Virus record (IMG/VR): IMGVR_UViG_2675903468_000006
Source of the DNA: a virus
Lineage: Duplodnaviria > Heunggongvirae > Uroviricota > Caudoviricetes
Direction: 5' to 3' (one strand)
Length of the DNA: 45,417 nt
The notes beneath the pieces were generated by a model. The model did not search any database and had not been told where the DNA came from. It saw nothing but the letters and a program-made list of their open reading frames with translations. Each line of letters opens with the position of its first letter. Within the stretch, counting starts at the first letter, position 1. Made by a program: the position numbers and the translations under genes. Positions 1,526 to 45,417 of this stretch are shown here, piece by piece.

Positions 1526-2587
1526 ATGTTAAAACAGCGAAATTTAGGAATTGAGGCTCTAAGGATTTTTAGCTTCATAATGGTAGTTACTATACACACA
1601 GCTCCTGAATACAGTATTGGTGGAAATAATAATATTACTGCGTTAATATTGCAGTCGTTATCAAGGGGTGGATTTATATGCTTTTTTATTATAAGTGGAT
1701 ACTTTGCCCTTAACGATAACATTAAAGACATTAAGAAATACTACTATAATAAGATGATAACTATAGTTTTCCCATTTATTATATATGCTTATATACACTA
1801 CTTCATGGTTCATAATAATTTCGGCACATCATTAGAATTATGGAAGAATTTCATTTCTTTTGATGAACTAAAATCTTTTGTTAACGCGATCATGATTGGT
1901 CCATCTTTCAATGGTCCAAAGTTCATGTCTCTGCATTTCTGGTTTGTATACTGGATAGTCGGAGCATTTATTGTTTCTCCTTTCATTGCGTACATAGTAA
2001 ACCTTATACCTTCAGAAAAAAGGATGAGTGCAATATTTGTTTTAATCTCCTTAAATATGTTCCACTTGTACATAACGCGATATATCCCAAAGGCGAACAT
2101 TATATTCTTACCTTACATTGTTAATGGTTGGTTTTTGTATTTTCTAATTGGTGGCTTATTGAATGGCATTAAAGTGACGAATCCAATTAAAACATCAATG
2201 CTTATGTTCATGTCTGGTTATATTCTTACCATCATAATAACTGTATTAAATTATAATGTATTAGGCATTAAAAAAATGCCATACGGCGAAGATATTAATA
2301 TGATATTAATGGCTACAGGTCTATTTATTATGTTTTATAATTCTAACATTAAATGGCCAGCTAGTTTAACTCTGGTAATATCACGACATTCATACTCAAT
2401 GTATTTATGCCACGTATTTATACTTTATTTTATTTCAGGTTTACTGAAGCCAGTGACTGACATCTATTTTATAAATATAATATTTAAAATATTAACAGTT
2501 TCAATACTGTCGTTCATTTTTGCTTACTTGGTTGACACATTTATAGTATTTAAAGCAACCAGATTTTTTAAACAACTATACAAATAA
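1526..2587 (+). CDS. Acyltransferase-3 family membrane protein (OafA/Oac-like O-antigen O-acetyltransferase)
   Basis: Multi-pass hydrophobic 353-aa protein; N-terminal R...H motif (EALRIF...TIHTAP); strongly AT-rich; SD agaaagg. Confidence 0.75.
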   Translation: MLKQRNLGIEALRIFSFIMVVTIHTAPEYSIGGNNNITALILQSLSRGGFICFFIISGYFALNDNIKDIKKYYYNKMITIVFPFIIYAYIHYFMVHNNFGTSLELWKNFISFDELKSFVNAIMIGPSFNGPKFMSLHFWFVYWIVGAFIVSPFIAYIVNLIPSEKRMSAIFVLISLNMFHLYITRYIPKANIIFLPYIVNGWFLYFLIGGLLNGIKVTNPIKTSMLMFMSGYILTIIITVLNYNVLGIKKMPYGEDINMILMATGLFIMFYNSNIKWPASLTLVISRHSYSMYLCHVFILYFISGLLKPVTDIYFINIIFKILTVSILSFIFAYLVDTFIVFKATRFFKQLYK

Positions 2588-23784: not shown

Positions 23785-24003
23785 TTACTCCGTTGTTTGT
23801 CCTGCTGGCTGTTCGGTCTGCTCTGCCGGTACTGGCGTAAACTGCACGCGCTTCACATCGGCCGGAGCGAAATAAAGCCACTCGCCCGTCTCTGTCGCCA
23901 GCGGCACAAAGCCATTAACCAACTCAGGCTGACGTCGTGACATCTTGCCCGTGAAGGTTTCGCCTGTTTGAGTGGTTAGCGTGATTTGGTAGATGTCGGA
24001 CAT
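23785..24003 (-). CDS. Hypothetical small protein upstream of terminase
   Basis: Start set at MSDIYQ; terminator hairpin just upstream. Confidence 0.4.
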   Translation of the reverse strand: MSDIYQITLTTQTGETFTGKMSRRQPELVNGFVPLATETGEWLYFAPADVKRVQFTPVPAEQTEQPAGQTTE

Positions 24004-24023
24004 GAAGACCCTCACAAGCCACT

Positions 24024-24057
24024 GTTGAAGAAAATGCCATCAGCATGGTGATGGCAT
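24024..24057 (-). terminator. Intrinsic terminator after the R-x4-H moron
   Basis: Minus-strand 9-bp stem ATGCCATCA...TGATGGCAT followed by TTTTCTT. Confidence 0.5.
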
Positions 24058-24080
24058 TACAATTCAATAATATGGCTGTA

Positions 24081-24662
24081 TTATTTTGCAGTTTTGTATT
24101 CAATAAACCCGTCAAAAATCAGACTATCGATGGTCATCATTTTCGTAAGTTTTTCCATAACCTCAGGATTTTCTTGCATATCAACAAGCCATCTCCTCAC
24201 GCCATTAGCTATATCATTACATAACTCAATAACATCTAATTGCAGAACACCATTAAAAGCATTCATATGTGCATGAAGGTTTTCTCGCGCAGGGGTCGTT
24301 ATCTTAAACTTCCTTAGCTTCGTTTCATCAACGCCTTCATGCAAACATGCATTCCTTAAACTCCAACAGTCTTCTGCAGTGAATGAGACTACGGGTTTTT
24401 GCGCCCTTAAGCTTTGCTTTATTCCTTCAGGCATGCTCTGAACCATTGCAGGGCTGGTGAGACTTAAATAGTCATACATGTTATCAGCGTTATATCTTGG
24501 CTTAAGATAGCGATTAAACCAGTCCTTGTACCTCGCGCCATTTCCTTTGATTTTATCCTCTGTCGCGCCACAGATGTCAGGAAGTGATATTGCTATGAAT
24601 AAAGCACCAAACCAATTCTTTTTAGACAAGCAATCATCTATTCCACTCAGCAACTGTTGCAT
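24081..24662 (-). CDS. Moron protein with R-x4-H (HEPN-like) motif; possible abortive-infection/defence candidate
   Basis: AT-rich; ATG at 24662 with SD AAGGTG; RNACLH motif; alternative GTG start at 24743 gives a lipobox-like LIVASGC N-terminus. Confidence 0.5.
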   Translation of the reverse strand: MQQLLSGIDDCLSKKNWFGALFIAISLPDICGATEDKIKGNGARYKDWFNRYLKPRYNADNMYDYLSLTSPAMVQSMPEGIKQSLRAQKPVVSFTAEDCWSLRNACLHEGVDETKLRKFKITTPARENLHAHMNAFNGVLQLDVIELCNDIANGVRRWLVDMQENPEVMEKLTKMMTIDSLIFDGFIEYKTAK

Positions 24663-24730
24663 ATATGAGCACCTTATTTTGTTGTAGACAGAGCCTACAA
24701 TACAACCAGATGCAACTATTAAGAAAACCT

Positions 24731-25192
24731 TTACTTCAAGCACTGAGTGCTTAGATATTCCTGAAGATAGCCAACCTGCTTCATCACTGTGGCGATTCTT
24801 TCTCTGAGGGTGAAATAATCCCGTTCAGCGGAGTCAGTAAGTCGGGGGCCGGAAGCATCGCCCATGCCGCTGGAGCCGGTCGTTCCGTTCGCGGGACAGT
24901 TTGCGTTGAGCTGCAGCCGCTTACGGCCAGCAATGACATCGCTATGCAGACGCTCAATGGTTTCTTTCGCATCAGCTAGTTCTCCGGTGTATTTGGCATC
25001 CAGTGCAGCGACATCACGCTGGCGGGCCTGCATGTCTTTTATGGTGGTGTTAGCCAGGCTGAGTTTCTCAGTGGCTTTATCGCGCTGGTCTTTATAAGCG
25101 ATGGCGTTGTCGCGGTAGTGGTTAATCGCCCAGGCCATGGAAACGAGCAGGCAGATAACGACAGCACAGATGATTGCTGTTAATCGGCTCAT
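24731..25192 (-). CDS. Rz: Rz i-spanin
   Basis: N-terminal TM segment then coiled coil; ATG overlaps endolysin stop; Rz1 embedded. Confidence 0.7.
24784..24972 (-). CDS. Rz1: Rz1 o-spanin lipoprotein embedded in Rz
   Basis: Signal peptide with lipobox LAVSGC, Pro-rich mature part, +1 frame inside Rz. Confidence 0.7.
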
Positions 25193-25683
25193 TTCTGGCC
25201 CCACTCGCAAACTTCGCGCTCAATCTCGCGCCGGGTTATCAGTCCCTTCCACTGCTTGCCACCGGCATACGTCCAGCGTTGCAGTTCTTTGCATGCCCCC
25301 GGCACGTCTCCGGCGTTCAGCTTCTTCAGCAGCGTCGAGCTGGCAAAAGCACCAGAGCCAACGTTATAGGTGAAGGAGTAAAGCGCGGCGCGGGTTGGCT
25401 CAGGAATGCGAACCTTGATCAGCGGGTCGATAGCATTTGCCACCTTTCGCAGATCGGCCTTCAGCATGTTGTCGCACTCTTTGTCGGTGTATCGGTGACC
25501 GCGGCGAATGTCCGCTCCGGTGTGCCCATCGCAAACAGTCCAGACGCCGACCACATCCTGATAGGCGTAATAGCGCCGTCCTTCCAGCCCATCGGCATTG
25601 CCCAGCATTACTGCAGCAATGGTGATGGCTCCGGATCCGCCAACAATGGCACCCACCAGCTTATTCCTCAACGTTGGGTTCAT
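25189..25683 (-). CDS. SAR endolysin (T4-lysozyme-type, GH24)
   Basis: N-terminal Gly/Ala-rich SAR segment [20 protein letters not shown]; lysozyme-like core. Confidence 0.85.
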
Positions 25684-25885
25684 CTCGGCTCCTGCTGCGG
25701 CGGTTGTCTTCGCGGATCTTGAAATAGAGATTCGTCAGATACGTCAGTACGGCAATGATGATACCCACCAGCACGCCGATAGCGTTCCACTGCTCGGGGC
25801 TGTAGGCATTAAGCATGCCGTTTAGGATGCTCCCGGCTGAAGCGCCATAGGCAGCACCAGTGGTTATTTTTTCCATGCGATACAT
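25661..25885 (-). CDS. Holin (pinholin-like, two TMD)
   Basis: 74 aa, two hydrophobic segments, charged C-terminus, overlaps endolysin start. Confidence 0.7.
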
Positions 25886-25984
25886 GCTCTCACCTCGCGT
25901 AGTTAGCGGGTGCTGTTCGTGTAGTGGGAAAGGCCGTCAAACACGATAGCTACGGGGCATCTGAAAGTGATTGTCTGCGGCCTG

Positions 25985-26010
25985 AATAAAAAACCCGGCG
26001 ACAGGCCGGG
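25985..26010 (-). terminator. Intrinsic terminator downstream of tRNA-Thr, upstream of holin
   Basis: Minus-strand CCCGGC-CTGTC-GCCGGG hairpin plus T-run. Confidence 0.55.
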
Positions 26011-26064
26011 AAGATGAGGGTAAGGCAATGTCGGCTCTACGGCCTATCCCAGCTGGCGGGATTC

Positions 26065-26140
26065 TGGTGCTGATTGACGGAGTTGAACCGCCGACATCCT
26101 GCTTACAAGGCAGGCGCTCTACCTACTGAGCTAAATCAGC
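26065..26140 (-). tRNA. tRNA-Thr (anticodon UGU), phage-borne
   Basis: 76-nt cloverleaf folded by hand: 7-bp acceptor stem, D-arm, anticodon loop CUUGUAA, T-loop TTCAACT, encoded CCA. Confidence 0.8.
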
Positions 26141-26170
26141 CAATAAAAAAGCCCCGCACGATGGCGAGGC
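26141..26170 (-). terminator. Hairpin plus T-run between Q and tRNA (candidate tR'-type terminator)
   Basis: Minus-strand GCCTCGC-CATCGT-GCGGGGC (one G-U pair) followed by TTTTTTATT. Confidence 0.45.
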
Positions 26171-26232
26171 TGGTTATTCATTCATGTCACACACAACAAT
26201 GGCAACATATACGAATTATTCTGCTCATTTGT

Positions 26233-26733
26233 TCATTGAAAAGCAAGCACGTTGTGAACATTTTTTGCAACTTTGTTCACATTATCGCGGCTGATAAAGG
26301 CATTTTGCAGCGGTTGATACAGGCAGAACAGTGCCGCGTTAAGTGTTTCCTTCACCTCCCGGCGTATGGTGGATATGCTCGGGTGCTTATACTGATTCCC
26401 GCCACGCGTCTTCATCACTCGAGGTTTGCTCACAGCGTGCTGCCAGCTGGCGATGCGGATCTCACTGGAGTTGCAGACGTAATAGGCGAAGACAACACGC
26501 CAGGCGTTCTCGTCGATATTTTTCAGGTAATGGCGCAGCACTGCGTCAATCAGCATACCGTCGTCGTCGCTACATACCGGGCGAGATGCCTGCTGCGGTT
26601 CGACGGTCGCCATAAACTTGGCAATCATGTTGATCATCGCCTTGTCTATCTTCCCGGTCTGCGACCATGCACCCCACAACTGGAGCCACTGATCAATCCA
26701 CTGATGCTGCTCGTTGGTTAATTCCAGTTTCAT
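26233..26733 (-). CDS. Q: Late gene antiterminator Q
   Basis: 166 aa, immediately upstream of tRNA/lysis cassette, SD AAGGAGG. Confidence 0.65.
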   Translation of the reverse strand: MKLELTNEQHQWIDQWLQLWGAWSQTGKIDKAMINMIAKFMATVEPQQASRPVCSDDDGMLIDAVLRHYLKNIDENAWRVVFAYYVCNSSEIRIASWQHAVSKPRVMKTRGGNQYKHPSISTIRREVKETLNAALFCLYQPLQNAFISRDNVNKVAKNVHNVLAFQ

Positions 26734-26846
26734 GCGGCCTCCTTCTTTGGCTGGTTGGTTTTGGTCTGGCTGTGCTTTGCTATTGGCGGCAGACTGGCGC
26801 GCTTAACGCTTTCGGCCTGGTATCTGGCTATCTGGTCACTGGTCAT
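26730..26846 (-). CDS. Very small coupled ORF (38 aa), Lys-rich C-terminus
   Basis: Start and stop both overlap neighbouring genes; below track cutoff. Confidence 0.2.
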   Translation of the reverse strand: MTSDQIARYQAESVKRASLPPIAKHSQTKTNQPKKEAA

Positions 26847-27058
26847 CAAATCGCCCTCGGCCTAGTTACGCACACAGAAATTCGGTAATGCTCACCTGCA
26901 TCAAATACGAATCCTTTTGCGTAAGTGGATAGCCCATCAGATACCGTCTTCCTTGCTAGCCTGTCAGCCGCGTGTTGTGCCTGCCTCTTGCTCATCCTGA
27001 TAGCGTTAAAATCGGCGTCCGTCAGCGGGCCACCTATGCCGAAAACTGGCTTTATCAT
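26846..27058 (-). CDS. Hypothetical nin-region protein (NinH-like position)
   Basis: 70 aa between NinG and Q. Confidence 0.4.
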   Translation of the reverse strand: MIKPVFGIGGPLTDADFNAIRMSKRQAQHAADRLARKTVSDGLSTYAKGFVFDAGEHYRISVCVTRPRAI

Positions 27059-27687
27059 GCTGCCTCCTGTTGACGGGCGCGGCGCTTCTCCAGCGCGCGG
27101 GCTTTACGGGTGAAAATGGATTTGATGCGTTGCAGGTATTGGATGTCGAACCGGCGGACGGAGTTATCGTTGTTTATCGCCTCAACTTTTTCGGCACCGA
27201 TGCGCTCGATAAGGCCCTGTTCAAATGCCTTTTGCGCGCCGTCCCGATCCCGGTTGCAATAGACACACTGGGCAGCGGTATTGTGAAGGTTGAAAGCCAG
27301 ATGCGCGGCAGCGCCACGGGTGCGATAGTGTCCGCAGTCCATGGTTCCGCCAAACTTCTGCTCTGGCAGCCTGCCGCAGCTGATGCACGGCTTACCTGCA
27401 TCCCTCAGACGGACGTACCGGTTGAATGCCGCCTGCGCTTCCGATCTCCACTGCGGTTTCGTTTTTAGCGCCACCTTTCTCGCTTTCAGATCCCGGCGTT
27501 CCGCGCGCTCTTTCTCTTTGCGCTCCTTGATGCGCTTAGCCGCGGCTTTAACCTTCTCCTTTTCGCGCTCCTCCATCGCGAGGATTGCGCCGTGCTCCGG
27601 ACAGCACCAGCGGATCCGGATGTCGTGGAATTTCGGCACGAAGTATTCACCGCATACTTTGCACTTACGGCGGGATGGTTTACGCAT
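27055..27687 (-). CDS. ninG: NinG/Rap-family recombination protein
   Basis: N-terminus [16 protein letters not shown], Cys clusters, basic repeat region; start moved to internal Met. Confidence 0.7.
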
Positions 27688-28348
27688 GGGCACCACCTTG
27701 AACCTGTACCAGCGTGAGGTTTCCGCAGAACACGGCACCGGTATCGATGTACATCTGGTTGGCATACTTCAGGGGCTGGCGCGCTGGGGTGTGTCCGAAG
27801 ATAAACAGATCAGCACCGGATATCGGCGAGACAATGCCGTCCTGAGCGTCGCTAACCCGCTCACGATTCCAGATGACCATTTCTTTCGGCACTGGCTTAT
27901 CAAATTCATATTCGTTGTGCGGGTAGTCAGCGTGACAGATGACTATTTTTCGATCGGAGGTAACCAACTCGATGATGAGTGGTAACTCAGCCGCTTTGTG
28001 AACCAGAGCCTTAGCCAGCACTTCTTTGTCATAGTCGAGATTGAAGAACCAACCGCCACCATTTACCAGCCAGTGATTGACGTTTCCATACTCCGACAGC
28101 CCATCAATCATCATCTGCTCATGGTTTCCTCGCACAGCCCGGAGCCAAGGCATAGTAATCAACTCCAGGCACTCGACGTTTTCCGCGCCGCGGTCAACAA
28201 GGTCTCCAACCGAAATCAGCAAATCACACGCAGGGTCGAACGAAACTTTTTCGAGCTCATTCATCAGCAGCGTGTAGCACCCATGCAGATCGCCGACGAC
28301 GAAAATATTGCGCCATTCAGCGCCATTAATGCGTTGATACATGCTCAT
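27680..28348 (-). CDS. Serine/threonine protein phosphatase (lambda NinI / PP-lambda family)
   Basis: GDLHG, GDLVDRG, GNHE motifs; start set at [12 protein letters not shown]. Confidence 0.8.
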
Positions 28349-28515
28349 GCAGATTTTCTCCTCGCCGCGAGACGCAGCCATTTCTGATCCACCAGACGGG
28401 CGGTGTAGCCCTTCAGTGTCGGGATGTCGGACGGCTTAACCGCAGGCTTACGCTGGCGGCGCGCAGGAACGCGGAATATTTCGTTTGTGATGATGCGGGA
28501 AAGTGGAGTAGACAT
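28345..28515 (-). CDS. Small coupled nin-region ORF (56 aa), basic
   Basis: ATG overlaps NinB stop, stop overlaps phosphatase ATG; below track cutoff. Confidence 0.35.
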
Positions 28516-28970
28516 CAGGCCTCCTGCTTATCGCGCAGCTGCTGGTATTCACAGCTCTGCGGAATGGTCAGGTGGCAGCCGATATTCATCGCCCAGGCTT
28601 CGACCTTGCACAGGAAGATGTACATTTCGCCAGTTTCCAGATCAGACGTATGGCGGAGGGATTGGACGGTGGTGACCTCGCCGGACACGACGTCTACACG
28701 GTCTTTGCTTTCGTAGCCGAGATAGGTGTGCTTCATCGCGTCTTTGACCCACTCAGGCGTAGCGAAGGTCTTGCCGCGGGCGATGAGGTACTCGCTGATT
28801 TCCGTGTACCACATGTGGCTGAGCGCGTTCTGTGACAGGCTGCGCTTCTCTCGCCACGGCTTAACCTGCAGGCGGAAGCACTGCCCGGCATCCAGCAATG
28901 GCTGAATCTGCTGGCCGATGGCCGCGAAGTTGCCACGATGGAGTTTGATACCGTCTACTGGCAGAGTCAT
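28515..28970 (-). CDS. ninB: NinB recombination protein
   Basis: 151 aa, position at start of nin cluster. Confidence 0.7.
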   Translation of the reverse strand: MTLPVDGIKLHRGNFAAIGQQIQPLLDAGQCFRLQVKPWREKRSLSQNALSHMWYTEISEYLIARGKTFATPEWVKDAMKHTYLGYESKDRVDVVSGEVTTVQSLRHTSDLETGEMYIFLCKVEAWAMNIGCHLTIPQSCEYQQLRDKQEA

Positions 28971-29149
28971 ACGGCCTCCTTAACGGAAACCGCAGAATGC
29001 AGAAAATCGCAGGTGCATTTCTGCATCTGTGACAATGTGAGGAGTTCAGATTGTGGTCGCATTTAAGTCCCCTTAAATGCGCAGAAGTCACCAATGGGTG
29101 TTCAGACCATCAGCAAAGAAAGTATGGACGGTTGATTCAACAAAATCAA

Positions 29150-38297: not shown

Positions 38298-38494
38298 TGG
38301 AAACTTTATTCGCACTCGTCCTGACCGTGGCAATGACCAACGGTGATTATCAGGATGTCATTCTCGGCGTTTACGACAGCCAGCAGGAATGCAGCCTGGC
38401 AGCTACAGAGCAGAAAGTGTCAGCTGAGTGCTGGCCGGTAGAAAGCATCATCCGCAACGGCGAGTTCCCGGCGAAATCCATCGCGCAGCAGTAA
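38297..38494 (+). CDS. Small protein with signal-peptide-like N-terminus (65 aa)
   Basis: METLFALVLTVAMTNG hydrophobic N-terminus. Confidence 0.4.
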   Translation: METLFALVLTVAMTNGDYQDVILGVYDSQQECSLAATEQKVSAECWPVESIIRNGEFPAKSIAQQ

Positions 38495-38564
38495 CCACCC
38501 TATTCAACCGATCGGCCTGGCATTACGCGGGCGGGATCTGCACATCCAAATTTCAGGAGAAACC

Positions 38565-39536
38565 ATGAGCGAAGTAACGGACTTAACTGTCATCGAAATC
38601 AAGCCGGAACAGGCCCCAGTGCTTTACGTAGCGGGCGGCCTTGACGCGTACCTTGAGCAAATCCGCCAGGCTGTAAACGAAGTGCCGGACCTGTCCACGA
38701 AGAAAGGCCGTGACCGTGTTGCCTCTCTGGCAGCGCAGGTGTCCCGCAGCAAGACGGCAATCGAAAAGCCGGGCCGTGAGTACCTGAAGCGCCTGAAAGA
38801 GGCTGTGCGTCCGGCTGAGGCCGAAATTAAGCGATTCGTTGATGCCTGCGACGAGCTGCGCGATGCGACCCGCCGCCCACTCACCGAATGGGAAGCCGAG
38901 CAGGAACGCATTAAGGCTGAAGAAGCCATGAACGCGATGCACGCCGAAGCGCTGGAGATGAACATCAGGTTCGATCAGGAACTGGCTGCCAAGTTCGAAG
39001 CGGACCACGAAATGGCTCTACTGATGAACAAGGATTTTGACCGTGACCGCGAAGAGCAGCGCCGTCTGGCGGAACAGGCTCAGCGTGAACGTGATGAGCG
39101 GCTGAAACAGGAAGCGGCAGAACAAGCCCGCCGCGATGCCGAAGCGAAGCACAAAGCGGAGATTGAAGCCGCAGCGCGCCGTGAAGCCGAAGAGAAAGCC
39201 CGCGCTGAACTGGCGGAGCGCCAGTGCGTCGAAGCGGAACAGCGTGCAGCTCGCGAGAAGCAGGAAGCGGAAGCCCGGGCGGAACGCGAAAAAGCCGCGG
39301 CGGTTGAAGCCGAGCGCCTGAAGGCCAAACAGGCCGAAGATGCCCGCCTGGCCGAAGAGAAGCGCCTCGCCGATGAGCAGGCAAAGCGTGAAGCTGACGT
39401 TAAGCACCGCAAGACGGTCGGCACCAACATCGTTAACGCGCTCACCAGCCAAACCAGCTTAACCCGCGAGCAGGCTATCGAAGTGCTTACCGCTCTGAAA
39501 GATGACCTGATCCCCTGCGCGAAAATTCATTACTGA
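38565..39536 (+). CDS. Hypothetical protein with long Glu/Arg/Ala-rich coiled-coil region
   Basis: 323 aa upstream of RecT; overlapping antisense ORFs are low-complexity artefacts. Confidence 0.5.
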   Translation: MSEVTDLTVIEIKPEQAPVLYVAGGLDAYLEQIRQAVNEVPDLSTKKGRDRVASLAAQVSRSKTAIEKPGREYLKRLKEAVRPAEAEIKRFVDACDELRDATRRPLTEWEAEQERIKAEEAMNAMHAEALEMNIRFDQELAAKFEADHEMALLMNKDFDRDREEQRRLAEQAQRERDERLKQEAAEQARRDAEAKHKAEIEAAARREAEEKARAELAERQCVEAEQRAAREKQEAEARAEREKAAAVEAERLKAKQAEDARLAEEKRLADEQAKREADVKHRKTVGTNIVNALTSQTSLTREQAIEVLTALKDDLIPCAKIHY

Positions 39537-39543
39537 GGCAACC

Positions 39544-39828
39544 ATGAACGCATACCTCACTTACGACCGCATCGAAGATCGGCGCTGGGCTGAGCAGCAG
39601 ATCACCGACGAGAAAGAGAAGTGGATCGACGACCGGGCGCAGAAAATCATCGACATGATGCCTAAAGAGCCGTCCGGCCTCTTCCACTTCACGATCCCGA
39701 TAGACTCCAGCCCATACGAAGGGCTTCGCAGCGATAAAGCTGGCGAGGCCTACAACGATTTCATTTCGGTAGTTGCTTACGCCCAGGCGGAATACGACTG
39801 GGAACACCGTACCGGCTGCCCGTTTTAA
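39544..39828 (+). CDS. Hypothetical protein
   Basis: 94 aa directly upstream of RecT. Confidence 0.4.
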   Translation: MNAYLTYDRIEDRRWAEQQITDEKEKWIDDRAQKIIDMMPKEPSGLFHFTIPIDSSPYEGLRSDKAGEAYNDFISVVAYAQAEYDWEHRTGCPF

Positions 39829-39846
39829 TTTTTGAGGGATTTAACA

Positions 39847-40593
39847 ATGAGTACTGCACTTTCCACCATGGCCGGGAAACTGGCCGCACGCCTCGGCATG
39901 GATGCCGGTACAGACCTGATGAATACGCTGAAGAATACAGCGTTCAAAGGTGGCAACGTCACGGACGAGCAGTTTACAGCCCTGTTGATCGTCGCCAACC
40001 AGTACGGCCTGAACCCATGGACCAAAGAGATTTACGCATTCCCAGATAAAGGCGGGATTGTCCCGGTCGTCGGCGTTGATGGATGGGCTCGCATTATCAA
40101 CGAGCATCCTCAGTTTGACGGCATGGAGTTCTCTTACGACAAGGAGGAAGGCGCGTGTACCTGCAAGATTTACCGCAAAGACCGTAAGCACCCGACCATC
40201 GTCACCGAGTACATGGGAGAGTGCAAACGCAACACTCAGCCATGGCAGTCCCACCCTACCCGCATGCTTCGCCACAAGACGCTGATCCAGTGCGCGCGTC
40301 TGGCCTTTGGTTTCGCTGGCATCTTCGACCAGGACGAGGCAGAGCGAGTAATTGAAGGAACAACGGCAGAGGTTCATGCGGGCCATGAATCAGATAGCCG
40401 CCGCCCGGAACTGATCGCAAAAGGTGAGTCCGCCGCGCGCCTTGGAACCGTTAAGTATCAGGAGTTCTGGGTGGCGCTGAGCGCCGAAGAGAAACAGGTG
40501 ATCGGCGCAGTTGAGAAACGACGCATGTATGACATGAGTCTTGCTGTCGACAACGCCGAACCTGTCAATGTCGCAGAGACGGAGGCTGAATGA
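39847..40593 (+). CDS. recT: RecT-family single-strand annealing recombinase
   Basis: RecT-like sequence; start set at MSTALS with upstream SD; followed by YqaJ-type exonuclease. Confidence 0.8.
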   Translation: MSTALSTMAGKLAARLGMDAGTDLMNTLKNTAFKGGNVTDEQFTALLIVANQYGLNPWTKEIYAFPDKGGIVPVVGVDGWARIINEHPQFDGMEFSYDKEEGACTCKIYRKDRKHPTIVTEYMGECKRNTQPWQSHPTRMLRHKTLIQCARLAFGFAGIFDQDEAERVIEGTTAEVHAGHESDSRRPELIAKGESAARLGTVKYQEFWVALSAEEKQVIGAVEKRRMYDMSLAVDNAEPVNVAETEAE

Positions 40594-41207
40594 TAGAGCA
40601 ACGCACCCCTGAATGGTTTGCTGCGCGCTGCGGCAAGGTCACAGCCAGTCGCCTGGCTGATGTCATGGCCCGGACTAAGTCGGGCTACTCCACCAGCCGC
40701 CAGAACTACATGGCCGAGCTGATTTGCCAACGGCTGACCGGGAAGCTGGAGGAAGGGTTTTCGAATGCCGCGATGATGCGCGGCACTGAACTTGAGCCAG
40801 TGGCACGCGAAATGTACGCGCTGAATGAGTTCAATGCGGAAATCACTGAAGTTGGACTCATCGATCACCCAACCATACCCGGATTCGCAGCCAGCCCGGA
40901 CGGACTTGTAAACGACGACGGGCTTATCGAAATCAAATGCCCCAATACCTGGACCCATATCGAAACGCTGAAAACCGGTGAACCAAAGCGCCAGTACATG
41001 CTGCAAATGCATGCACAGATGATGTGCACCGGGCGGAAATGGTGTGATTTCGTTAGTTTCGATGATCGCCTGCCGCCTGACCTCGCCTATTTCAAGAAGC
41101 GTATTCATTTCGATGAAGAGCTGGCGCGCGAAATCGAGTCTGAGGTTAAGACCTTCCTTGCAGATCTGGAATCTGAAATTCAGAAAATCACAGAGCGTGC
41201 AGCATGA
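40590..41207 (+). CDS. YqaJ-type viral recombinase exonuclease
   Basis: PD-(D/E)xK-like motifs (ASPDG, IEIKCP); overlaps RecT stop. Confidence 0.8.
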   Translation: MIEQRTPEWFAARCGKVTASRLADVMARTKSGYSTSRQNYMAELICQRLTGKLEEGFSNAAMMRGTELEPVAREMYALNEFNAEITEVGLIDHPTIPGFAASPDGLVNDDGLIEIKCPNTWTHIETLKTGEPKRQYMLQMHAQMMCTGRKWCDFVSFDDRLPPDLAYFKKRIHFDEELAREIESEVKTFLADLESEIQKITERAA

Positions 41208-41292
41208 AGGCACTCATCACCCGGGAGCTTAAAGCTCCTTTTTTATTGCTGGCGTTCACCTTCAACCGAATTAACCGACAGTTCCGGGAGCA

Positions 41293-41517
41293 TTGACCAT
41301 GGACATCATCGATACCGCAGCAGAGATTGAAGAGCTTCAGCGTAACGCTGCCCTTTCCGCTCACCGCATCGACCGTAATGCCGTTTCAGCGGAGCATTGC
41401 GAAGAATGCGACGAACCAATTCCCGAACCGCGGCGCGCTGCCGTTCCCGGCTGCCAGACGTGTGCAGAGTGCCAATCCGTCATCGAGCTGAAGAATAAGC
41501 AAAGGGGGTTGCAGTGA
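41293..41517 (+). CDS. TraR/DksA-family C4 zinc-finger protein
   Basis: CEECDEP...CQTCAECQ four-Cys arrangement, 74 aa. Confidence 0.6.
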   Translation: MTMDIIDTAAEIEELQRNAALSAHRIDRNAVSAEHCEECDEPIPEPRRAAVPGCQTCAECQSVIELKNKQRGLQ

Positions 41518-42182
41518 AAGAGCGCGGAATGATTTTCAACGGCGAGATGGTGCGCGCCATCCTCGACGGCAAAAAGACGCAGACGCGGCGCATCATGAAG
41601 GTTCAGCCGACTGATGGTTTCCACCCAACGCATAACGGTTACGATCTGGATTTAAACGCACACTGGTACACACCTGGCGTGATCGATAAAAACGGATACC
41701 TGCAACCTGCAAAGAAAGATGCATTTGGCGTTGCTGATGAGAATGAAGGCTATACCTGCCCGTTCGGTGCCGTCGGCGATCGCATCTGGGTGCGCGAAAC
41801 GTGGGCTGAAGCTGGTGCTGGCGCGCCGGACCTGAAACTTTATCGCGCGGATTACCCTGAGCATGTTCCAACTCATTACGAGAATGTGCCGCTGGCTGAT
41901 GAAATACGCTGGACGCCTTCGATTCACATGCCGCGCTGGGCTAGTCGTCTAACTCTGGAGATTACCGGAGTGCGAGTTGAGCGATTGCAGGCCATTACCC
42001 TTGGGGATATCTGTAAGGAAATCGGCTGCGGTCTTTACGACTTCCGCCCTGCTACTTATGGCTTTCAGGTGTGGGAAGAACTGTGGAAGTCCATCTACGG
42101 CGAAGAAAACTGGCAGGCCAACCCCTGGGTCTGGGTAATCGAATTTAAGGTGGTGCCCAATGTTCAGGATAATCCAGCCTAA
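41514..42182 (+). CDS. ASCH/PUA-like domain protein (tentative)
   Basis: N-terminal MIFNGEMVRAILDGKKTQTRR resembles the ASCH G-[KR]-K-T-x-T-x-R signature. Confidence 0.4.
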   Translation: MKERGMIFNGEMVRAILDGKKTQTRRIMKVQPTDGFHPTHNGYDLDLNAHWYTPGVIDKNGYLQPAKKDAFGVADENEGYTCPFGAVGDRIWVRETWAEAGAGAPDLKLYRADYPEHVPTHYENVPLADEIRWTPSIHMPRWASRLTLEITGVRVERLQAITLGDICKEIGCGLYDFRPATYGFQVWEELWKSIYGEENWQANPWVWVIEFKVVPNVQDNPA

Positions 42183-42474
42183 TACCTGGTACGCCGATCC
42201 CCACGGCGCGTCCTGCAAAATCCTCCGCGCTACCCACGAAGTAATCCACTACATCCGCAACGGTCGCACCTGCATCGCCAGCATTGGCCGCTTTCAACAT
42301 GAATTCGAGCCGCTGACCAAAGCACAGGCTGAGCGGATCGCCGAAGAAATCGAAACAGCAAAGCACATCGAAAAATTAAGGAGCATGAGACGTGATCGGA
42401 ATACTCAAGCCGGTACCGGAATCGCAATGGCCGGTACGATGCCACGACCCCAAGCGGAGCAACGTGTGGGCTAA
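42160..42474 (+). CDS. Hypothetical protein
   Basis: 104-aa ORF overlapping neighbours at both ends. Confidence 0.35.
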   Translation: MFRIIQPNTWYADPHGASCKILRATHEVIHYIRNGRTCIASIGRFQHEFEPLTKAQAERIAEEIETAKHIEKLRSMRRDRNTQAGTGIAMAGTMPRPQAEQRVG

Positions 42475-42733
42475 CTCTTACTTTCTTGTTCAGGAGTTTC
42501 AGGAAGAGAACGGTGTTATTCGCCTGACGGTGAACACCACCAGCATTGGCAGCTCTGGCCGGTGGAAGGATGGCATCAGTTGGGATGCATTGCAGGAGAT
42601 AAAGTCAGCCGTTGGCTATGGGGATCGGGATGCCGTGGAGATTTACCCGCGGGATTATGATGTGGTGAACGTGGCGAACATGCGCCACCTGTGGATTACG
42701 CCGGAGCCAATTAGCTTCGCCTGGCGGAAGTAA
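42392..42733 (+). CDS. Hypothetical protein
   Basis: GTG start with SD AAGGAG. Confidence 0.4.
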   Translation: MIGILKPVPESQWPVRCHDPKRSNVWANSYFLVQEFQEENGVIRLTVNTTSIGSSGRWKDGISWDALQEIKSAVGYGDRDAVEIYPRDYDVVNVANMRHLWITPEPISFAWRK

Positions 42734-42823
42734 ACAGCATCAGCGCATCGCCGTGTGGCGGGTGACATCCCGCCAAATAACGACGATCAACTGAACATCA
42801 ACACATTATATGTACATACGACC

Positions 42824-43915
42824 ATGAACATTCAGATCAAAACACTATCTGTCCGAATTAAAGACAAGCACGCAGCCGTTTTGCGGCAGATGGCCTTTGA
42901 GGTCAATCAGATCTTTAATCTGGCAAACGAGATAACCAGCGCAGCATACGGCAACGCTGGCTTTTTTGGCGCGCAAAAACCGCAATGGCTATCGGCGTTT
43001 GATGTTCAGAAACCGCTCCTTAAAGAGCGAAAAGAGCGCGGGTATACCATCCCCAGCCATACCGTACAGGAAATCGCAGCAATTCACGGCAAGGCACGGA
43101 AGCAATTTAAACGCTCTCGCTTACGCTGGCGAGTCAGTGGGGGATCTCGCCGTTCGTTGGGTTGGGTGCCGTTTAAAATAGGCAGCGCTGTCTGGAAAAA
43201 TGGCGCGGTGCGGTTCGCTGGCAGGATTTTTAATGTCTGGGATAGCTACGGCTTGGGAGGATTTAAATTCCGTGCTGGAAGCTTTTCAGAAGACAGCCGT
43301 GGACGCTGGTACTTCAATGTTTGCGTAGAGGTCGAAACTGTCCCATCAACGGCCACTTCCGCCGTGGGTATCGATTTAGGGCTGAAAGACTACGCCACCC
43401 CGTCAGAAGGTGATCCGCTGATTGCCGGTAGATTCTATCGAGATCTGGAGCCTGCATTAGGAAAGGCACAGCGTGCAAACAAAAAAGCCCGTGTACGCGC
43501 CATACACGCCAAAATTAAGAACCGCCGCAAAGATGCCCTGCACAAGTACAGCACGGCGCTGGTTAACAGCCATGCGGCAATATTCGTAGGCGACGCGAGC
43601 AGTAAGAAACTGGTTAAAACCAAAATGGCAAAAAGCATTTTGGACGCTGGCTGGTTCATGCTCAAAACACAACTGGAATATAAAGCGATTGCGCGGTCAG
43701 TGGTGTTTGAAGTGGTCAACGAAAGTTATTCCACCCAAGCTTGTTCGTGTTGCGGGGCTATCTCCGCCAACAGTCCGAAAGGTAGAGCAGGCCTGCGAAT
43801 AAGAGAATGGACTTGTTGTGAGTGCGGAACCACTCATGACCGCGACGTGAACGCCGCAAAGAACATTCTCGCGGCGGGGCATCGCCGTCTAGCTGTAGGA
43901 ATCCCCTTCCTTTAG
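42824..43915 (+). CDS. tnpB: TnpB (IS200/IS605 OrfB; RuvC-like RNA-guided nuclease family)
   Basis: RuvC-I GIDLGLKDYAT, zinc ribbon CSCCG...CCECG, RuvC-III HDRDVNAAKNI. Confidence 0.85.
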   Translation: MNIQIKTLSVRIKDKHAAVLRQMAFEVNQIFNLANEITSAAYGNAGFFGAQKPQWLSAFDVQKPLLKERKERGYTIPSHTVQEIAAIHGKARKQFKRSRLRWRVSGGSRRSLGWVPFKIGSAVWKNGAVRFAGRIFNVWDSYGLGGFKFRAGSFSEDSRGRWYFNVCVEVETVPSTATSAVGIDLGLKDYATPSEGDPLIAGRFYRDLEPALGKAQRANKKARVRAIHAKIKNRRKDALHKYSTALVNSHAAIFVGDASSKKLVKTKMAKSILDAGWFMLKTQLEYKAIARSVVFEVVNESYSTQACSCCGAISANSPKGRAGLRIREWTCCECGTTHDRDVNAAKNILAAGHRRLAVGIPFL

Positions 43916-43998
43916 GACGGGGAGGATGTCAAGCAACTGATAGCCAGTTATGAGCTGGCTATTGGGTGCGAAAGCACTGCTCAGTTATCCCCCATTTT

Positions 43999-44027
43999 GC
44001 CCGGCCCCGCGCCGGGCGCTCTTTTTC
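43999..44027 (+). terminator. Hairpin plus T-run after tnpB (terminator or right-end hairpin of the IS)
   Basis: GCCCGGC-CCCGC-GCCGGGC followed by gctcttttt. Confidence 0.5.
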
Positions 44028-44039
44028 TGGAGATCACAG

Positions 44040-44255
44040 ATGAATGACAGCATCCTGGTTACAAGCGAAATCCTTGCGCGCTACAAAATATCGCGCAGCA
44101 CGCTCTATTTCTGGAGCACTCCCGCACGTATGCCATCCAGCTTTTCATGCCCATTCCCGAAACCAACCATCCCCGGAAATCCGAAGCGCTGGCGTGAGTC
44201 AGAAATCAAGTCATGGGAAGACAAGGTCAACTTTGCTAAAGGGGATACCCAATAA
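44040..44255 (+). CDS. AlpA-family excisionase / transcriptional regulator
   Basis: ISRSTLYFW and PKRWRESEIKSWE resemble AlpA; SD GGAG; convergent with int. Confidence 0.65.
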   Translation: MNDSILVTSEILARYKISRSTLYFWSTPARMPSSFSCPFPKPTIPGNPKRWRESEIKSWEDKVNFAKGDTQ

Positions 44256-45417
44256 TCTCCTGCAAATGCTTCTGCCAGATATCCAGCCATTCATGCTGAT
44301 CGTCCATATAGTCATGAAGGTTGTATCTGGCCATAACCCCGCCCATCTGATGTCCGAGCAACTTTTCTATAACGTGTGGTGGAGCGCCAAGCTCGGACAG
44401 GCGCGTGGCCACCGTTCTCCGCAAATCATGTAATGACCACTCCTTCATTCCGTTCTTACGCACTACCTGCATTGAGTACGTCGAGACAAGCGTCTGCCCA
44501 GGTGGGACATCTTCTTTATCCCGGAACTGTGCTGGAGTCAGAACGTGCTTAGTGATTGATCCGCGTTGATGCTCTTGCAGAAGCCTGACCGCAGTATCCG
44601 GCAACGCACGACGAATAGTTTTACCGGTCTTATAATCCTCTGCCGGCACAGTCCAGGACCTTTCTTTGAAATCGAACCACTCCCATCTCGACTTTCTTAT
44701 TTCTGCGGCGCGGCATCCGGTTAGAATCATGAACCTGATTACCAGTTGTTGAGAGGGAGGCAGAGAGAAAAGAGTATCCCACACCTGCTTTATCTCACTA
44801 TCTGAAAGCCGCCTCTCCTTCATCTTCGCTGCTATACCGACATCCGATTTTCGTAACGACTCCAGTGGATTGGTTTTGATTACTCCCCTGTTGTGGCAGA
44901 ACCGGAAAGCACGCTTGGTCAGAGACAGCATCTCACCTGATATGACACTCCTCCCCATTGCATCGAAAACCTCAAGCCAGTTCGCCTTCACTGTCTGGTC
45001 CACAATAGCCTTCCCTAGCCGCGGGCTAATGTGCTTTTTGAAGCTTTTACCGTTCGCATCAATTTTAATGAGCCCCTCCGGGATACAGTAATGCTTCACC
45101 CAGTACTCATAGGCCTCATCGACTGTCAGCGCTTCTATTCTTTCAGCCTTCTCCACCAGCACTTTCTGCCGGGGATCATACCCCTCGCTCAACCACGCTC
45201 TGAACTGCTGTCTTCTGTCTCTCGCCTGAGAGAGTGAAATAGTTGGATAGTCACCAATGCTTAACTGCACAGGCTTGCCCTGCCAGCGATACCGATAGAA
45301 GAATGTGATAGAACCGGTTATGCTTAGACGCACATTCAGTCCGTTTGAATCAGAGAGAACCTCAACCTTCTCCCTGCGCTTTCCGAGCGACTTTCGTAAC
45401 TTAGTATCTGTGAGCAC
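44236..45417 (-). CDS. int: Tyrosine integrase (P4-like), start at or just beyond the window edge
   Basis: C-terminal HDLRRT ... LGH ... Y catalytic signature; N-terminus LTDTKLRK typical of P4-type integrases. Confidence 0.85.
   Translation of the reverse strand: MLTDTKLRKSLGKRREKVEVLSDSNGLNVRLSITGSITFFYRYRWQGKPVQLSIGDYPTISLSQARDRRQQFRAWLSEGYDPRQKVLVEKAERIEALTVDEAYEYWVKHYCIPEGLIKIDANGKSFKKHISPRLGKAIVDQTVKANWLEVFDAMGRSVISGEMLSLTKRAFRFCHNRGVIKTNPLESLRKSDVGIAAKMKERRLSDSEIKQVWDTLFSLPPSQQLVIRFMILTGCRAAEIRKSRWEWFDFKERSWTVPAEDYKTGKTIRRALPDTAVRLLQEHQRGSITKHVLTPAQFRDKEDVPPGQTLVSTYSMQVVRKNGMKEWSLHDLRRTVATRLSELGAPPHVIEKLLGHQMGGVMARYNLHDYMDDQHEWLDIWQKHLQEIIGYPL

Follow-up and report, generated by a model that had tools for sequence, protein, structure and literature searches.

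A tRNA-Thr(UGU) gene in a variable slot of a phage 21-type late leader and its possible role as a spare for the host tRNA

Results

Exactly one tRNA was called by ARAGORN in the 45.4-kb stretch of viral DNA analyzed here (the window): a 76-nt tRNA-Thr with the anticodon TGT on the minus strand (26065..26140), whose 3′ CCA is present in the DNA. It matches the Rfam tRNA family RF00005 over its full length at 75.1 bits (gathering score 29; E = 8.7e-15), and the cloverleaf, in which all stems pair, is its minimum-energy fold (−27.4 kcal/mol). Read by position, the sequence keeps U8, A14, G18, G19, U33, U54, U55, C56, and A58, and the gene thus combines an above-threshold score with the cloverleaf and tertiary-contact nucleotides of an RF00005 tRNA. 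The identity elements of the E. coli threonyl-tRNA synthetase (ThrRS) are G1-C72, C2-G71, G35, and U36; by sequence and alignment, all of these are present along with the anticodon UGU. An identical copy in RefSeq NZ_AP045762.1 is annotated as tRNA-Thr by PGAP, and the same sequence occurs in 8 loci, the window included. This is almost certainly a real tRNA gene. A first-pass annotation, made from the sequence alone, had described a 76-nt minus-strand tRNA-Thr(UGU) with a cloverleaf and an encoded CCA and had proposed ARAGORN as a check; the ARAGORN call, the Rfam score, and the fold bear out that description. We rejected a pseudogene because the scores are high and every stem is intact. An attachment-site remnant was also rejected, as the tRNA is complete, lies mid-prophage, and is distant from the integrase. 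Taking its expression, processing, and charging to resemble those of homologues, we consider a functional gene of a phage-specific lineage the best explanation.

As had been proposed, the tRNA is located between an antiterminator gene and the lysis genes; all lie on the minus strand. Immediately upstream, a 166-aa open reading frame (26233..26733) encodes a Q of the phage 21 (Q21) type, the gene order of a Q-dependent late unit. It matches Pfam PF06530 (Phage_antitermQ; E = 2.7e-21) and, by phmmer, the Q21 structures 6P18 and 6JNX (E = 3.3e-45; residues 2-155, 154 residues matched), and it is 90% identical to Q of HK639 and 48% identical to Q of phage 21. Downstream, the first late gene (25661..25885) encodes a class II (phage 21 S-type) holin (PF04971; E = 1.5e-25) with a Met1/Met4 dual start; its translation begins MYRMEK, with the 3-codon start spacing of S21 of phage 21. 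It is followed by an endolysin gene (25189..25683; PF00959; E = 5e-44) and by Rz/Rz1 spanin genes (24731..25210, with the embedded frame at 24784..24972; PF03245; E = 9.5e-43).

Late promoter, terminators, and leader

Homology to phage 21 places a predicted late promoter, pR′, with its Q-binding element (QBE) at 26215..26246 on the minus strand, with a −35 element TTGCTT at 26246..26241 and a −10 region at 26222..26215. Two 8-bp subsites form a direct repeat between them (26237..26222): QBEu, AATGAACA, at 26237..26230, overlapping the Q stop codon, and QBEd, AATGAGCA, at 26229..26222. The phage 21 promoter used for alignment reads −35 TTGACA, QBEu ATTGAGCA, QBEd AATGAGCA, and −10; all 8 positions of QBEd and 6 of the 8 of QBEu agree with it, and the window contains a single match to the QBE pattern where 0.02 would be expected. 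The sigma-70 elements may be read as TTGCTT-18-AGAATA or TTTTCA-16-AATAAT, both weak consensus matches placed by alignment, and a consensus scan of 24500..27500 returned the pR′ site, as TTTTCA-16-AATAAT, as its only promoter-like site. The predicted start, an A at 26210 or 26208, and the candidate pause element TATGTTG at 26209..26203 (together 26203..26210, minus strand) appear to be position-for-position counterparts of those in phage 21, TATGTTG being a weak, alignment-placed match at the position of the sigma-dependent pause element TAAGCTG. Its Q, its QBE, and its order of elements make this a phage 21-type Q system.

Hairpins followed by T runs flank the tRNA on both sides, as the first-pass annotation had noted. 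The first, t1 (26141..26171, minus strand), was recognized as the tR′ equivalent by terminator scan, fold, and homology. It has an 8-bp stem with 6 G-C pairs (26171..26150) and a tail, TTTTTATTG, that runs to 26141; as RNA it reads AGCCUCGC-CAUCGU-GCGGGGCU and then UUUUUAUUG, and it folds at −13.7 kcal/mol (z = −2.9). The second late terminator, t2 (25986..26010, minus strand), recognized by scan, fold, and comparison, has a stem of 6 G-C pairs (26010..25994) and a tail, TTTTTTAT, that runs to 25986; it reads CCCGGC-CUGUC-GCCGGG and then UUUUUUAU, with a fold of −11.8 kcal/mol (z = −3.3). The interval to which the tRNA had been assigned, 25985..26232, is bounded exactly by the Q stop codon on one side and the end of the t2 tail on the other.

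A scan of 3 kb found 4 terminator-like sites against 2.9 expected, and since this count by itself is not significant, support for t1 and t2 was drawn from comparison. The t1 homologue in phage HK639 carries a terminator annotation, t1 occupies the position at which the phage 21 record annotates a terminator (citing PMID 1704887), and the same hairpin precedes a tRNA-Arg and an Asn-Thr-Arg array in relatives. At the t2 position, 14 distinct leaders carry 12 distinct G+C-rich hairpins with several unrelated stem sequences; folded singly, these are stable except for one weakened variant, and a T-rich tract follows each at the same place. In RNAalifold runs on whole leaders, t2 went undetected, as such divergent hairpins could not be aligned. 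The counterpart of t2 in Salmonella phage L is annotated as a terminator. By structure and conservation, t1 and t2 are canonical intrinsic terminators, at which termination and Q-dependent read-through are predicted. The QBE, the pause counterpart, and t1 all align with phage 21, in agreement with the earlier placement of the late promoter and tR′ just downstream of Q.

A stop at t1 would leave a short leader RNA of about 60-70 nt (26148..26220, minus strand). It matches isrJ (RF01393) over its full length at a sub-threshold 23.3 bits (gathering score 37; E = 0.01-0.05), and assignment to a known RNA family was rejected, as all Rfam matches apart from the tRNA were below threshold. Between the tRNA slot and t2, a spacer with two small hairpins, UCCCGCCAGCUGGGA and GGCCGUAGAGCC (26031..26061, minus strand), is conserved in leaders with and without tRNAs. 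From t2 to the holin start, RNAalifold on 16 leaders predicted a long hairpin with 12 stem pairs and one bulged A (25931..25983, minus strand), in which one pair changes from A-U to C-G in 6 of the 16 and another from G-C to G-U.

A variable tRNA slot between t1 and t2

Among 35 IMG/VR contigs with the same downstream leader, the space between t1 and t2 holds Thr, Arg(UCU), Asn plus Thr, CAU plus Arg, Gly plus Arg, or no tRNA at all; E. coli relatives add a further tRNA-less allele and an Asn-Thr-Arg array. Relatives without a tRNA still have both terminators, about 60 nt apart. Since t2 is found in tRNA-less leaders, it did not come with the tRNA. These leaders show the two late terminators as a tandem pair, with a slot of variable content between them in which the tRNA sits. 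The description of the gene as bracketed by two terminators therefore stands as to their flanking positions but not as to a bracket that belongs to, and arrived with, the tRNA.

About half of the related leaders have no tRNA call, a few of them having little upstream sequence, and decay is evident in others: the "tRNA-Leu(TAA)" of phage L/ST64T aligns to the tRNA-Thr lineage and is not called by ARAGORN, and the slot holds a Gly-like remnant in HK639 and a 3′ remnant in L004. Such losses would be in keeping with a neutral passenger, a cassette in a recombination-prone slot that is transcribed without measurable benefit and is heading to decay. We find this improbable for the window's tRNA-Thr, which is intact at 75 bits with its stems and identity elements kept, recurs unchanged in 8 loci, and belongs to a lineage whose changes are concentrated in the anticodon arm. 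In one backbone lineage, differences fall at 8 of 20 positions in the anticodon arm versus 2 of 56 outside it (p = 2e-4), and changes within the lineage are compensatory, not random.

A single nucleotide separates the end of the t1 tail from position 1 of the tRNA, which leaves no room for a promoter of its own; in relatives, phage 21 included, the first tRNA starts within roughly a dozen nucleotides of the T-run. Given this gap and pR′ as the only promoter-like site between Q and holin, the tRNA is very likely transcribed only from pR′ by read-through of t1, in line with the earlier proposal that it forms part of the read-through late transcript. Its arrangement could be compared to that of an independent moron, which with its own promoter and t2 would be expressed constitutively from the prophage to serve the lysogen. 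Stx2 phage tRNAs do have their own primary start (PMC7547250), and a hairpin terminator does follow tRNA-Thr. We nevertheless rejected a self-contained moron and regard it as very improbable, there being no room for a promoter and t2 being independent of the tRNA. Leak of pR′ transcripts through t1 could still give some expression in the lysogen.

The window is colinear with the E. coli 23CRST004 genome only at 23821..29092 (BLAST). An integrase is encoded at its right end, and tRNA-dependent lysogeny exists in some mycobacteriophages (PMC10865867); the tRNA-Thr might accordingly be imagined to replace a host tRNA gene disrupted by integration. However, a related E. coli prophage, 98.7% identical over window positions 38486..44464 up to just inside the integrase gene, sits between yciB and yciA and not in a tRNA gene, and the late operon that contains the tRNA is silent in a lysogen except for leak. 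On both grounds this replacement was rejected, and we assign it next to no probability.

Codon usage

Codons were counted in strand-restricted ORFs, with a 32-gene E. coli sample as the baseline, from which the window's host may differ. As a share of all Thr codons, ACA stands at 16.1% for the late genes, 15.2% for the early genes, and 12.2% for the E. coli sample (late versus sample, p = 0.09; late versus early, p = 0.83); per 1,000 codons, it stands at 11.2 for late ORFs versus 6.3 for the sample. It is used for 19 of the 53 Thr codons of the tail-spike gene (2633..4759), but for 0 of 15 in the capsid gene and 2 of 35 in the tail tube gene. Enrichment is much stronger for AGA, AGG, and AUA, at roughly 2- to 10-fold, than for ACA. 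These counts support the ACA-supply idea weakly. The earlier suggestion that the tRNA adjusts ACA decoding for late genes, which was to be checked by comparing late-gene codon usage with the host, gains a little from the mild excess over the E. coli sample and nothing from the comparison of late with early genes.

Codon supplementation, by which the tRNA would boost a scarce ACA decoder and speed late translation regardless of any defense, thus draws on a higher ACA frequency in late ORFs that, as a share of Thr codons, reaches only p = 0.09 against a possibly foreign baseline and p = 0.83 against early genes. The ACA-rich tail spike stands opposite two major structural genes, capsid and tail tube, that avoid the codon. 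In E. coli, thrU is the only gene for a tRNA with the UGU anticodon (PMC12445682), and late expression, as predicted from the leader, would coincide with demand; yet the phage carries a tRNA for Thr and not for Arg or Ile, whose AGA, AGG, and AUA codons are more enriched, and the tRNA is missing from a close relative whose Q and holin are the same. We consider it unlikely, though not negligible, that codon supply is the explanation.

Counter-defense

Published work points to a different benefit, the replacement of host tRNA-Thr(UGU) destroyed by nucleases (PMC12445682, PMC12409363, PMC13043305). P2 Old, the trigger of which is Gam, owes its lethality to cleavage of host tRNA-ThrU after C28 and C40, from which cells are rescued by the tRNA-Thr(UGU) copies of phages, that of phage 21 among them (PMC12445682). 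PARIS AriB cuts tRNA-Thr(UGU) at C40|A41 in the context U36-A-A-U39, and a U39A substitution abolishes its cleavage of tRNA-Lys; the tRNA-Lys, -Thr, and -Asn of T5 jointly neutralize PARIS, with tRNA-Thr contributing to rescue from AriB (PMC12409363). HepS also attacks tRNA-Thr species (PMC13043305). The prophage itself carries a Gam/Bet/Exo module at 39544..41207 (plus strand).

The window's tRNA-Thr shares its UGU anticodon with the host tRNA targeted by these defense nucleases. It reads U36-A-A-G39-C40-A41, with a C31-G39 pair where thrU has A31-U39, and so carries G39 for U39 among the AriB determinants around C40|A41. We know of no published report on the effect of U39G on tRNA-Thr cleavage, the U39 rule coming from U39A in tRNA-Lys. 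The host hexamer UAAUCA is lost in 35 of 37 distinct phage-type tRNA-Thr(UGU) sequences, a loss partly expected from drift alone. A pattern scan of IMG/VR viral sequences for the D arm and anticodon loop gave 121 matches, 76 of which were host thrU copies at prophage edges.

For P2 Old, resistance follows a two-factor rule of altered CNG motifs plus a shortened anticodon stem (PMC12445682). This signature is absent from the window's tRNA-Thr, which retains C28-U29-G30 and C40-A41-G42 unchanged and whose anticodon stem, with a C27-G43 pair, is five Watson-Crick pairs long; by the two-factor rule it looks P2 Old-sensitive. HepS cuts the anticodon loop, and the loop of the window's tRNA-Thr is identical to that of the host. 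With a change at position 39, as in the protective tRNAs of T5 and phage 21, and a kept Old motif, the gene could serve to tell apart the rules by which AriB and Old recognize their targets. It offers a natural allele for asking whether temperate-phage tRNAs serve codon supply or survival of tRNA-cutting defenses. By analogy with the published cases, we put counter-defense as the main benefit of the tRNA at roughly even probability.

Discussion

By analogy with phage 21 and its relatives, polymerase would start at pR′ (about 26210) and halt at the sigma-dependent pause element. Without Q, it would stop at t1 and release only the 60-70-nt RNA; the few polymerases leaking past t1 would copy the tRNA and end at t2, leaving the lysis genes silent. 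With Q, a pair of Q21-type protomers bound at the direct-repeat QBE would be loaded onto the polymerase while it is paused; so modified, the polymerase would ignore both t1 and t2 and make a single late RNA comprising the tRNA, leader, holin, endolysin, spanins, and structural genes. The tRNA would be excised by RNase P and host 3′-end enzymes. Because read-through would be Q-dependent and late, the tRNA should accumulate as late proteins are made, decoding ACA and, if U34 is modified, ACG and ACU as well. Its main selective value would be as a spare for host tRNA-Thr(UGU) (thrU), whose anticodon arm is cut by PARIS AriB, P2 Old, and, secondarily, HepS; a match to the somewhat higher ACA use of the phage would probably be the smaller benefit. 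In this scheme, transcription, processing, charging, nuclease resistance, and lysogen leak are all modeled on homologues. Taken as a whole, a functional tRNA-Thr(UGU) in a variable slot of a Q21-type late leader, with this mechanism and spare role, is in our estimate evenly balanced between right and wrong.

The tandem-terminator leader can be seen as a conserved scaffold with an exchangeable tRNA slot, which helps prophage annotation and the prediction of strictly Q-dependent tRNAs. More tentatively, and with the weight of probability against it, the slot may be a dedicated swap-in site for counter-defense tRNAs (Thr-UGU, Asn-GUU, Arg-UCU, and others) in lambdoid and P22-like phages. The CCUGC/GCAGG arm would then be a distinct escape allele, AriB-resistant via G39 and not Old-resistant, and t1 leak stopped by t2 would supply a low level of nuclease-resistant tRNA in the lysogen. 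If so, leaked tRNA could blunt abortive-infection tRNases there.

The finding of such a tRNA gene in a lambda-like prophage is correct but ordinary, because the order of Q, tRNA, and lysis genes is known from phage 21 and relatives, and an identical copy is already in RefSeq. tRNAs between Q and holin are textbook for phage 21, P22-like, and Stx phages, and the gene itself adds little. Phage 21 (GenBank OL657228) has a like order of Q, pR′, terminator, tRNA-Asn, tRNA-Thr, S21 holin (pinholin), SAR endolysin, and spanins, and it shares with the window a two-subsite QBE and a terminator that ends directly at the first tRNA, its pause element having a candidate counterpart in the window. With its Q21-type Q and QBE match, the window's cassette therefore mirrors that of phage 21. 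The two differ in that their Q proteins are only 48% identical, the terminator hairpins are unrelated in sequence, and phage 21, with two tRNAs, lacks an annotated second terminator, whereas the window has one tRNA between t1 and t2. The tRNA-Thr of phage 21 ("tRNA-Thr21") differs from the window's at 20 of 76 positions. Both have C31-G39, whereas C28U/G42A and a mismatched 27-43 pair, the changes linked to Old resistance, are found in tRNA-Thr21 and neither is found in the window's tRNA-Thr.

Salmonella phage L/ST64T (P22-like) resembles the window in having a Q21-family antiterminator (gp23; 49% identity), tRNAs between two annotated terminators, and a homologous tRNA-to-holin spacer, t2 position, and leader hairpin (about 77% identity); its slot instead holds a tRNA-Asn and the decayed Thr-lineage copy, and its holin is of another type. 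HK639 has the closest Q and nearly the same pR′, QBE, and t1 hairpin (about 91% DNA identity), but a tRNA-Asn, unannotated in its record, follows t1 in place of tRNA-Thr, and its leader is much longer, with three further annotated terminators.

The lambdoid late leader of Stx phages (933W/Sakai), like that of the window, has its tRNA genes behind Q, pR′, and tR′, here between Q and stx, but with another type of Q and other tRNA species, namely Ile and Arg isoacceptors. Their short terminated pR′ RNA is StxS (PMC7547250, PMC6266700). The downstream tRNAs of Stx2 phage are expressed from a primary start situated between tR′ and stx (PMC7547250), and such a promoter downstream of tR′ would be impossible in the window.

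Unlike the window's gene, the genes for the PARIS-countering tRNA-Thr(UGU) of T5 and T4, both lytic phages, belong to large tRNA clusters that have promoters of their own; these tRNAs share their anticodon and loop with the window's. From U36 to A41, the T5 tRNA reads UAAGCA, exactly as in the window; the T4 tRNA is about 90% identical to the window's, with the same acceptor arm, D arm, and T stem. The anticodon stems differ, being GUUGC/GCAUC (with a U28-U42 mismatch) in T5, CCUCA/UGAGG in T4, and CCUGC/GCAGG in the window.

The tRNA gene and its late-region neighbors

A single tRNA was called by ARAGORN across the window, a tRNA-Thr with anticodon TGT at 26065..26140 (-). The Rfam tRNA model matched it over its full length at 75.1 bits (threshold 29, E = 8.7e-15), the cloverleaf was the minimum-energy structure of the tRNA strand folded alone (-27.4 kcal/mol), and the 3' CCA is genome-encoded. 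G1-C72, C2-G71, G35, and U36 serve as identity elements for E. coli threonyl-tRNA synthetase, and all are present on reading the tRNA sequence. The tool call, the model score, and the fold thus agree with the first-pass annotation, which had proposed a minus-strand tRNA-Thr(UGU) with a complete cloverleaf and encoded CCA. A 1.2-kb segment around the gene matches a prophage of E. coli 23CRST004 (NZ_AP045762.1) at 100% identity, and there the NCBI pipeline has already annotated the tRNA-Thr copy in RefSeq. Colinearity with that prophage is limited to 23821..29092 (the region of Q, the tRNA, lysis, and nin), at 99.7% identity; structural genes are 83 to 91% identical with shifted coordinates, and the early region is partly unrelated. 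With respect to the 23CRST004 prophage, the window is a mosaic relative and not the same element. Its tRNA adds a new allele to a known slot rather than a new kind of element, an identical copy being already in RefSeq.

The adjacent Q antiterminator ORF (26233..26733, -) is of the phage 21 type (Pfam PF06530; Q21 structures, E = 3.3e-45) and shares 90% identity with HK639 Q and 48% with phage 21 Q. The lysis cassette 3' of the tRNA is likewise of phage 21 style, comprising a class II holin of the S21 family with dual starts (Met1/Met4), an endolysin, and Rz with Rz1 embedded. Putative elements of the late promoter pR' were placed on the minus strand by alignment to the fully annotated phage 21 genome: the -35 (TTGCTT, 26246..26241), the upstream Q-binding subsite QBEu (AATGAACA, 26237..26230, overlapping the Q stop codon), QBEd (AATGAGCA, 26229..26222), the -10 region (26222..26215), a predicted transcription start (A, 26210), and a counterpart of the pause element (TATGTTG, 26209..26203). 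The alignment thereby supplied putative counterparts of the late promoter and first late terminator, tR', that had been expected just downstream of Q. The window contains a single match to the QBE pattern, where 0.02 would be expected, and among fetched loci the pattern lies only beside Q genes of the phage 21 type; pR' was the only sigma-70-like site reported by a promoter scan of 24500..27500.

The same arrangement is found in phage 21, where Q is followed by pR' (-35, QBE ATTGAGCA and AATGAGCA, -10, and start), a sigma-dependent pause element, a terminator, tRNA-Asn, tRNA-Thr(UGU), S21, a SAR endolysin, and spanins; its annotated terminator stops at the base preceding tRNA-Asn, much as the first predicted terminator of the window, t1, nearly abuts the tRNA. 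Q, pR', and t1 have their nearest counterparts in HK639. The hairpin homologous to t1 bears a terminator annotation there, and a tRNA-Asn missing from the record's annotation comes immediately after it. In the HK639 locus (HM208537), ARAGORN called this tRNA-Asn(GUU) at 2419..2493 of the locus examined, right after the terminator downstream of Q where the GenBank record has no tRNA; a Gly-like tRNA remnant follows it.

An exchangeable tRNA slot between two predicted terminators

A terminator scan placed t1 (stem 26171..26150, tail to 26141; -13.7 kcal/mol) and t2 (stem 26010..25994, tail to 25986; -11.8 kcal/mol) on the minus strand. Since the 3-kb scan returned four terminator-like sites against 2.9 expected, a raw count not above chance, the case for t1 and t2 rests on comparison. 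Leaders were collected as loci sharing the sequence just 3' of t2, namely 35 IMG/VR contigs together with fetched E. coli and phage loci. At the t2 position, they carry 12 distinct hairpins on several unrelated stems (GGCGG/CCGCC, GCCCAC/GUGGGC, CCCGGC/GCCGGG, GCCAGC/GCUGGC, CCUGGC/GCCAGG, and one 10-bp variant), each followed by a T-rich tract, a pattern that constitutes strong comparative evidence for a terminator. The slot itself holds tRNA-Thr(UGU), tRNA-Arg(UCU), Asn plus Thr, a CAU tRNA plus Arg, Gly plus Arg, Asn-Thr-Arg, or no tRNA. Empty leaders still keep both terminators, with some 60 nt between them, so the pair is a feature of the late leader and did not arrive with the tRNA. Scan, folding, and relatives agree on hairpin-plus-T-run elements on both sides of the gene, as first annotated.

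The P22-like phages L and ST64T share this two-terminator form, and the t2 counterpart of Salmonella phage L is annotated as a terminator. The "tRNA-Leu (TAA)" of phage L (MW013502; 1850..1921 of the locus examined), also present in ST64T and ST160, aligns to the window tRNA-Thr lineage; ARAGORN made no call on the phage L gene, which appears to be a degenerate tRNA-Thr and not a tRNA for leucine. The same lineage also holds the tRNA-Thr of T4 (~90% identity) and P1 (~92%) and several Klebsiella prophage tRNAs.

Q21-type proteins load onto promoter-proximally paused polymerase, and their nozzle on the RNA exit channel blocks formation of terminator hairpins (Yin et al., bioRxiv 10.1101/651190). 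Without Q, pR' transcripts would stop at t1, giving an RNA of ~60 to 70 nt, and polymerases leaking past t1 would copy the tRNA and then stop at t2. With Q, polymerase would read through both, and the tRNA would come first among the products of the late transcript, presumably freed by RNase P and 3'-end enzymes. The t1 tail stops 1 nt short of tRNA position 1, which leaves no space for a promoter and argues against an independent moron. In Stx phages, by contrast, tRNAs are driven by a separate promoter downstream of tR' (PMC7547250). With this 1-nt gap and pR' as the sole promoter-like site of the 3-kb scan, the first-pass placement of the tRNA in a Q-antiterminated late transcript appears sound, while the origin of the terminator bracket and the codon rationale need correcting.

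Several other leader elements were observed. The expected pR'-to-t1 short RNA (26148..26220, -) gave a full-length but sub-threshold Rfam match to IsrJ, an Hfq-binding sRNA of Salmonella (23.3 bits; gathering score, 37). By eye, relatives with a different Q type have pR' leaders that are closer to the IsrJ consensus than the window leader is, so IsrJ may be nothing more than the terminated pR'-tR' RNA of a prophage, like StxS. Just downstream of t2, a 12-bp hairpin with one bulged A (AGGCCGCAGACA / UGUUUG-A-CGGCCU; 25931..25983, -) is kept in position and sequence in 16 leaders, ahead of several different holin genes, with one covarying pair (A-U to C-G in 6 of the 16); a possible role is to mark the 5' end of the lysis mRNA, or to shield it, once the tRNA is excised. 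Two small conserved hairpins, UCCCGCCAGCUGGGA and GGCCGUAGAGCC (26031..26061, -), lie between the tRNA slot and t2 and are also found in tRNA-less leaders.

Possible benefits of tRNA-Thr(UGU)

The first-pass proposal that the tRNA may adjust ACA decoding for late genes was examined with codon counts from ORFs called on the expected strand. ACA makes up 16.1% of Thr codons in late genes, 15.2% in early genes, and 12.2% in an E. coli sample that may not represent the window's host (late versus sample, p = 0.09; late versus early, p = 0.83). Per 1,000 codons, the values are 11.2, 7.5, and 6.3, the late excess arising partly because late proteins are Thr-rich. The excess comes mainly from the tail spike (19 of 53 Thr codons), whereas ACA is avoided by the capsid (0/15) and tail tube (2/35) genes, and AGA, AGG, and AUA are enriched ~2 to 10 times, above ACA. 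On these counts, codon supply is possible, with weak support.

Three published enterobacterial systems, P2 Old, PARIS AriB, and HepS, destroy host tRNA-Thr (PMC12445682, PMC12409363, PMC13043305). P2 Old, which destroys tRNA-Thr(UGU), is triggered by Gam, and phage tRNA-Thr(UGU) copies, phage 21's included, rescue cells (PMC12445682). U39A abolishes tRNA-Lys cleavage by PARIS AriB, and the T5 Lys, Thr, and Asn tRNAs jointly neutralize PARIS (PMC12409363). HepS, from the Gifsy-1 prophage, cuts the anticodon loop of tRNA-Thr species (PMC13043305).

Relative to the host tRNA-Thr(UGU), thrU, the window tRNA is unchanged in the D arm and anticodon loop, but its anticodon stem is CCUGC/GCAGG instead of ACUGA/UCAGU. 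U39 is replaced by G39, so that U36-A41 reads UAAGCA, exactly as in T5 tRNA-Thr, and C31-G39 is common to phage 21 tRNA-Thr. A set of 37 distinct phage-type tRNA-Thr(UGU) sequences was assembled, of which 35 no longer contain the host hexamer UAAUCA. Among members of a single backbone lineage (T4, the window, and several copies from IMG/VR), differences fall at 8 of 20 anticodon-arm positions versus 2 of 56 in the rest of the tRNA (p = 2e-4). The early-left region also encodes a recombination module resembling Gam, Bet, and Exo (39544..41207, +). All of these point toward counter-defence. Drift alone is expected to account for part of the hexamer loss, however. With both CNG motifs intact and all 5 bp of the anticodon stem in place, the tRNA should stay sensitive to P2 Old by the published two-factor rule; its anticodon loop suggests no obvious escape from HepS. 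Having weighed these points, we consider counter-defence, chiefly against AriB-like enzymes, the most likely benefit, with a roughly even chance of being correct. Codon supply comes second and is clearly less likely. The probability left over is divided among three other readings, in which the tRNA is a neutral passenger, is an independent moron, or replaces a host tRNA that was disrupted. The last reading is unlikely because a related E. coli prophage is integrated between yciB and yciA.

A homologous tRNA-Thr in Klebsiella phage Kp4864-1 (2880..2955 of the locus examined) has U37 for A37 (loop CUUGUUA). The change would remove the t6A37 modification site and could represent either a defect or an escape variant of the anticodon loop.

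Near the integrase end of the early-left region, a 386-aa ORF (42755..43915, +) lies in a stretch 98.7% identical to a related E. coli prophage, in which the equivalent gene carries the annotation of an InsQ/TnpB-family RNA-guided endonuclease.
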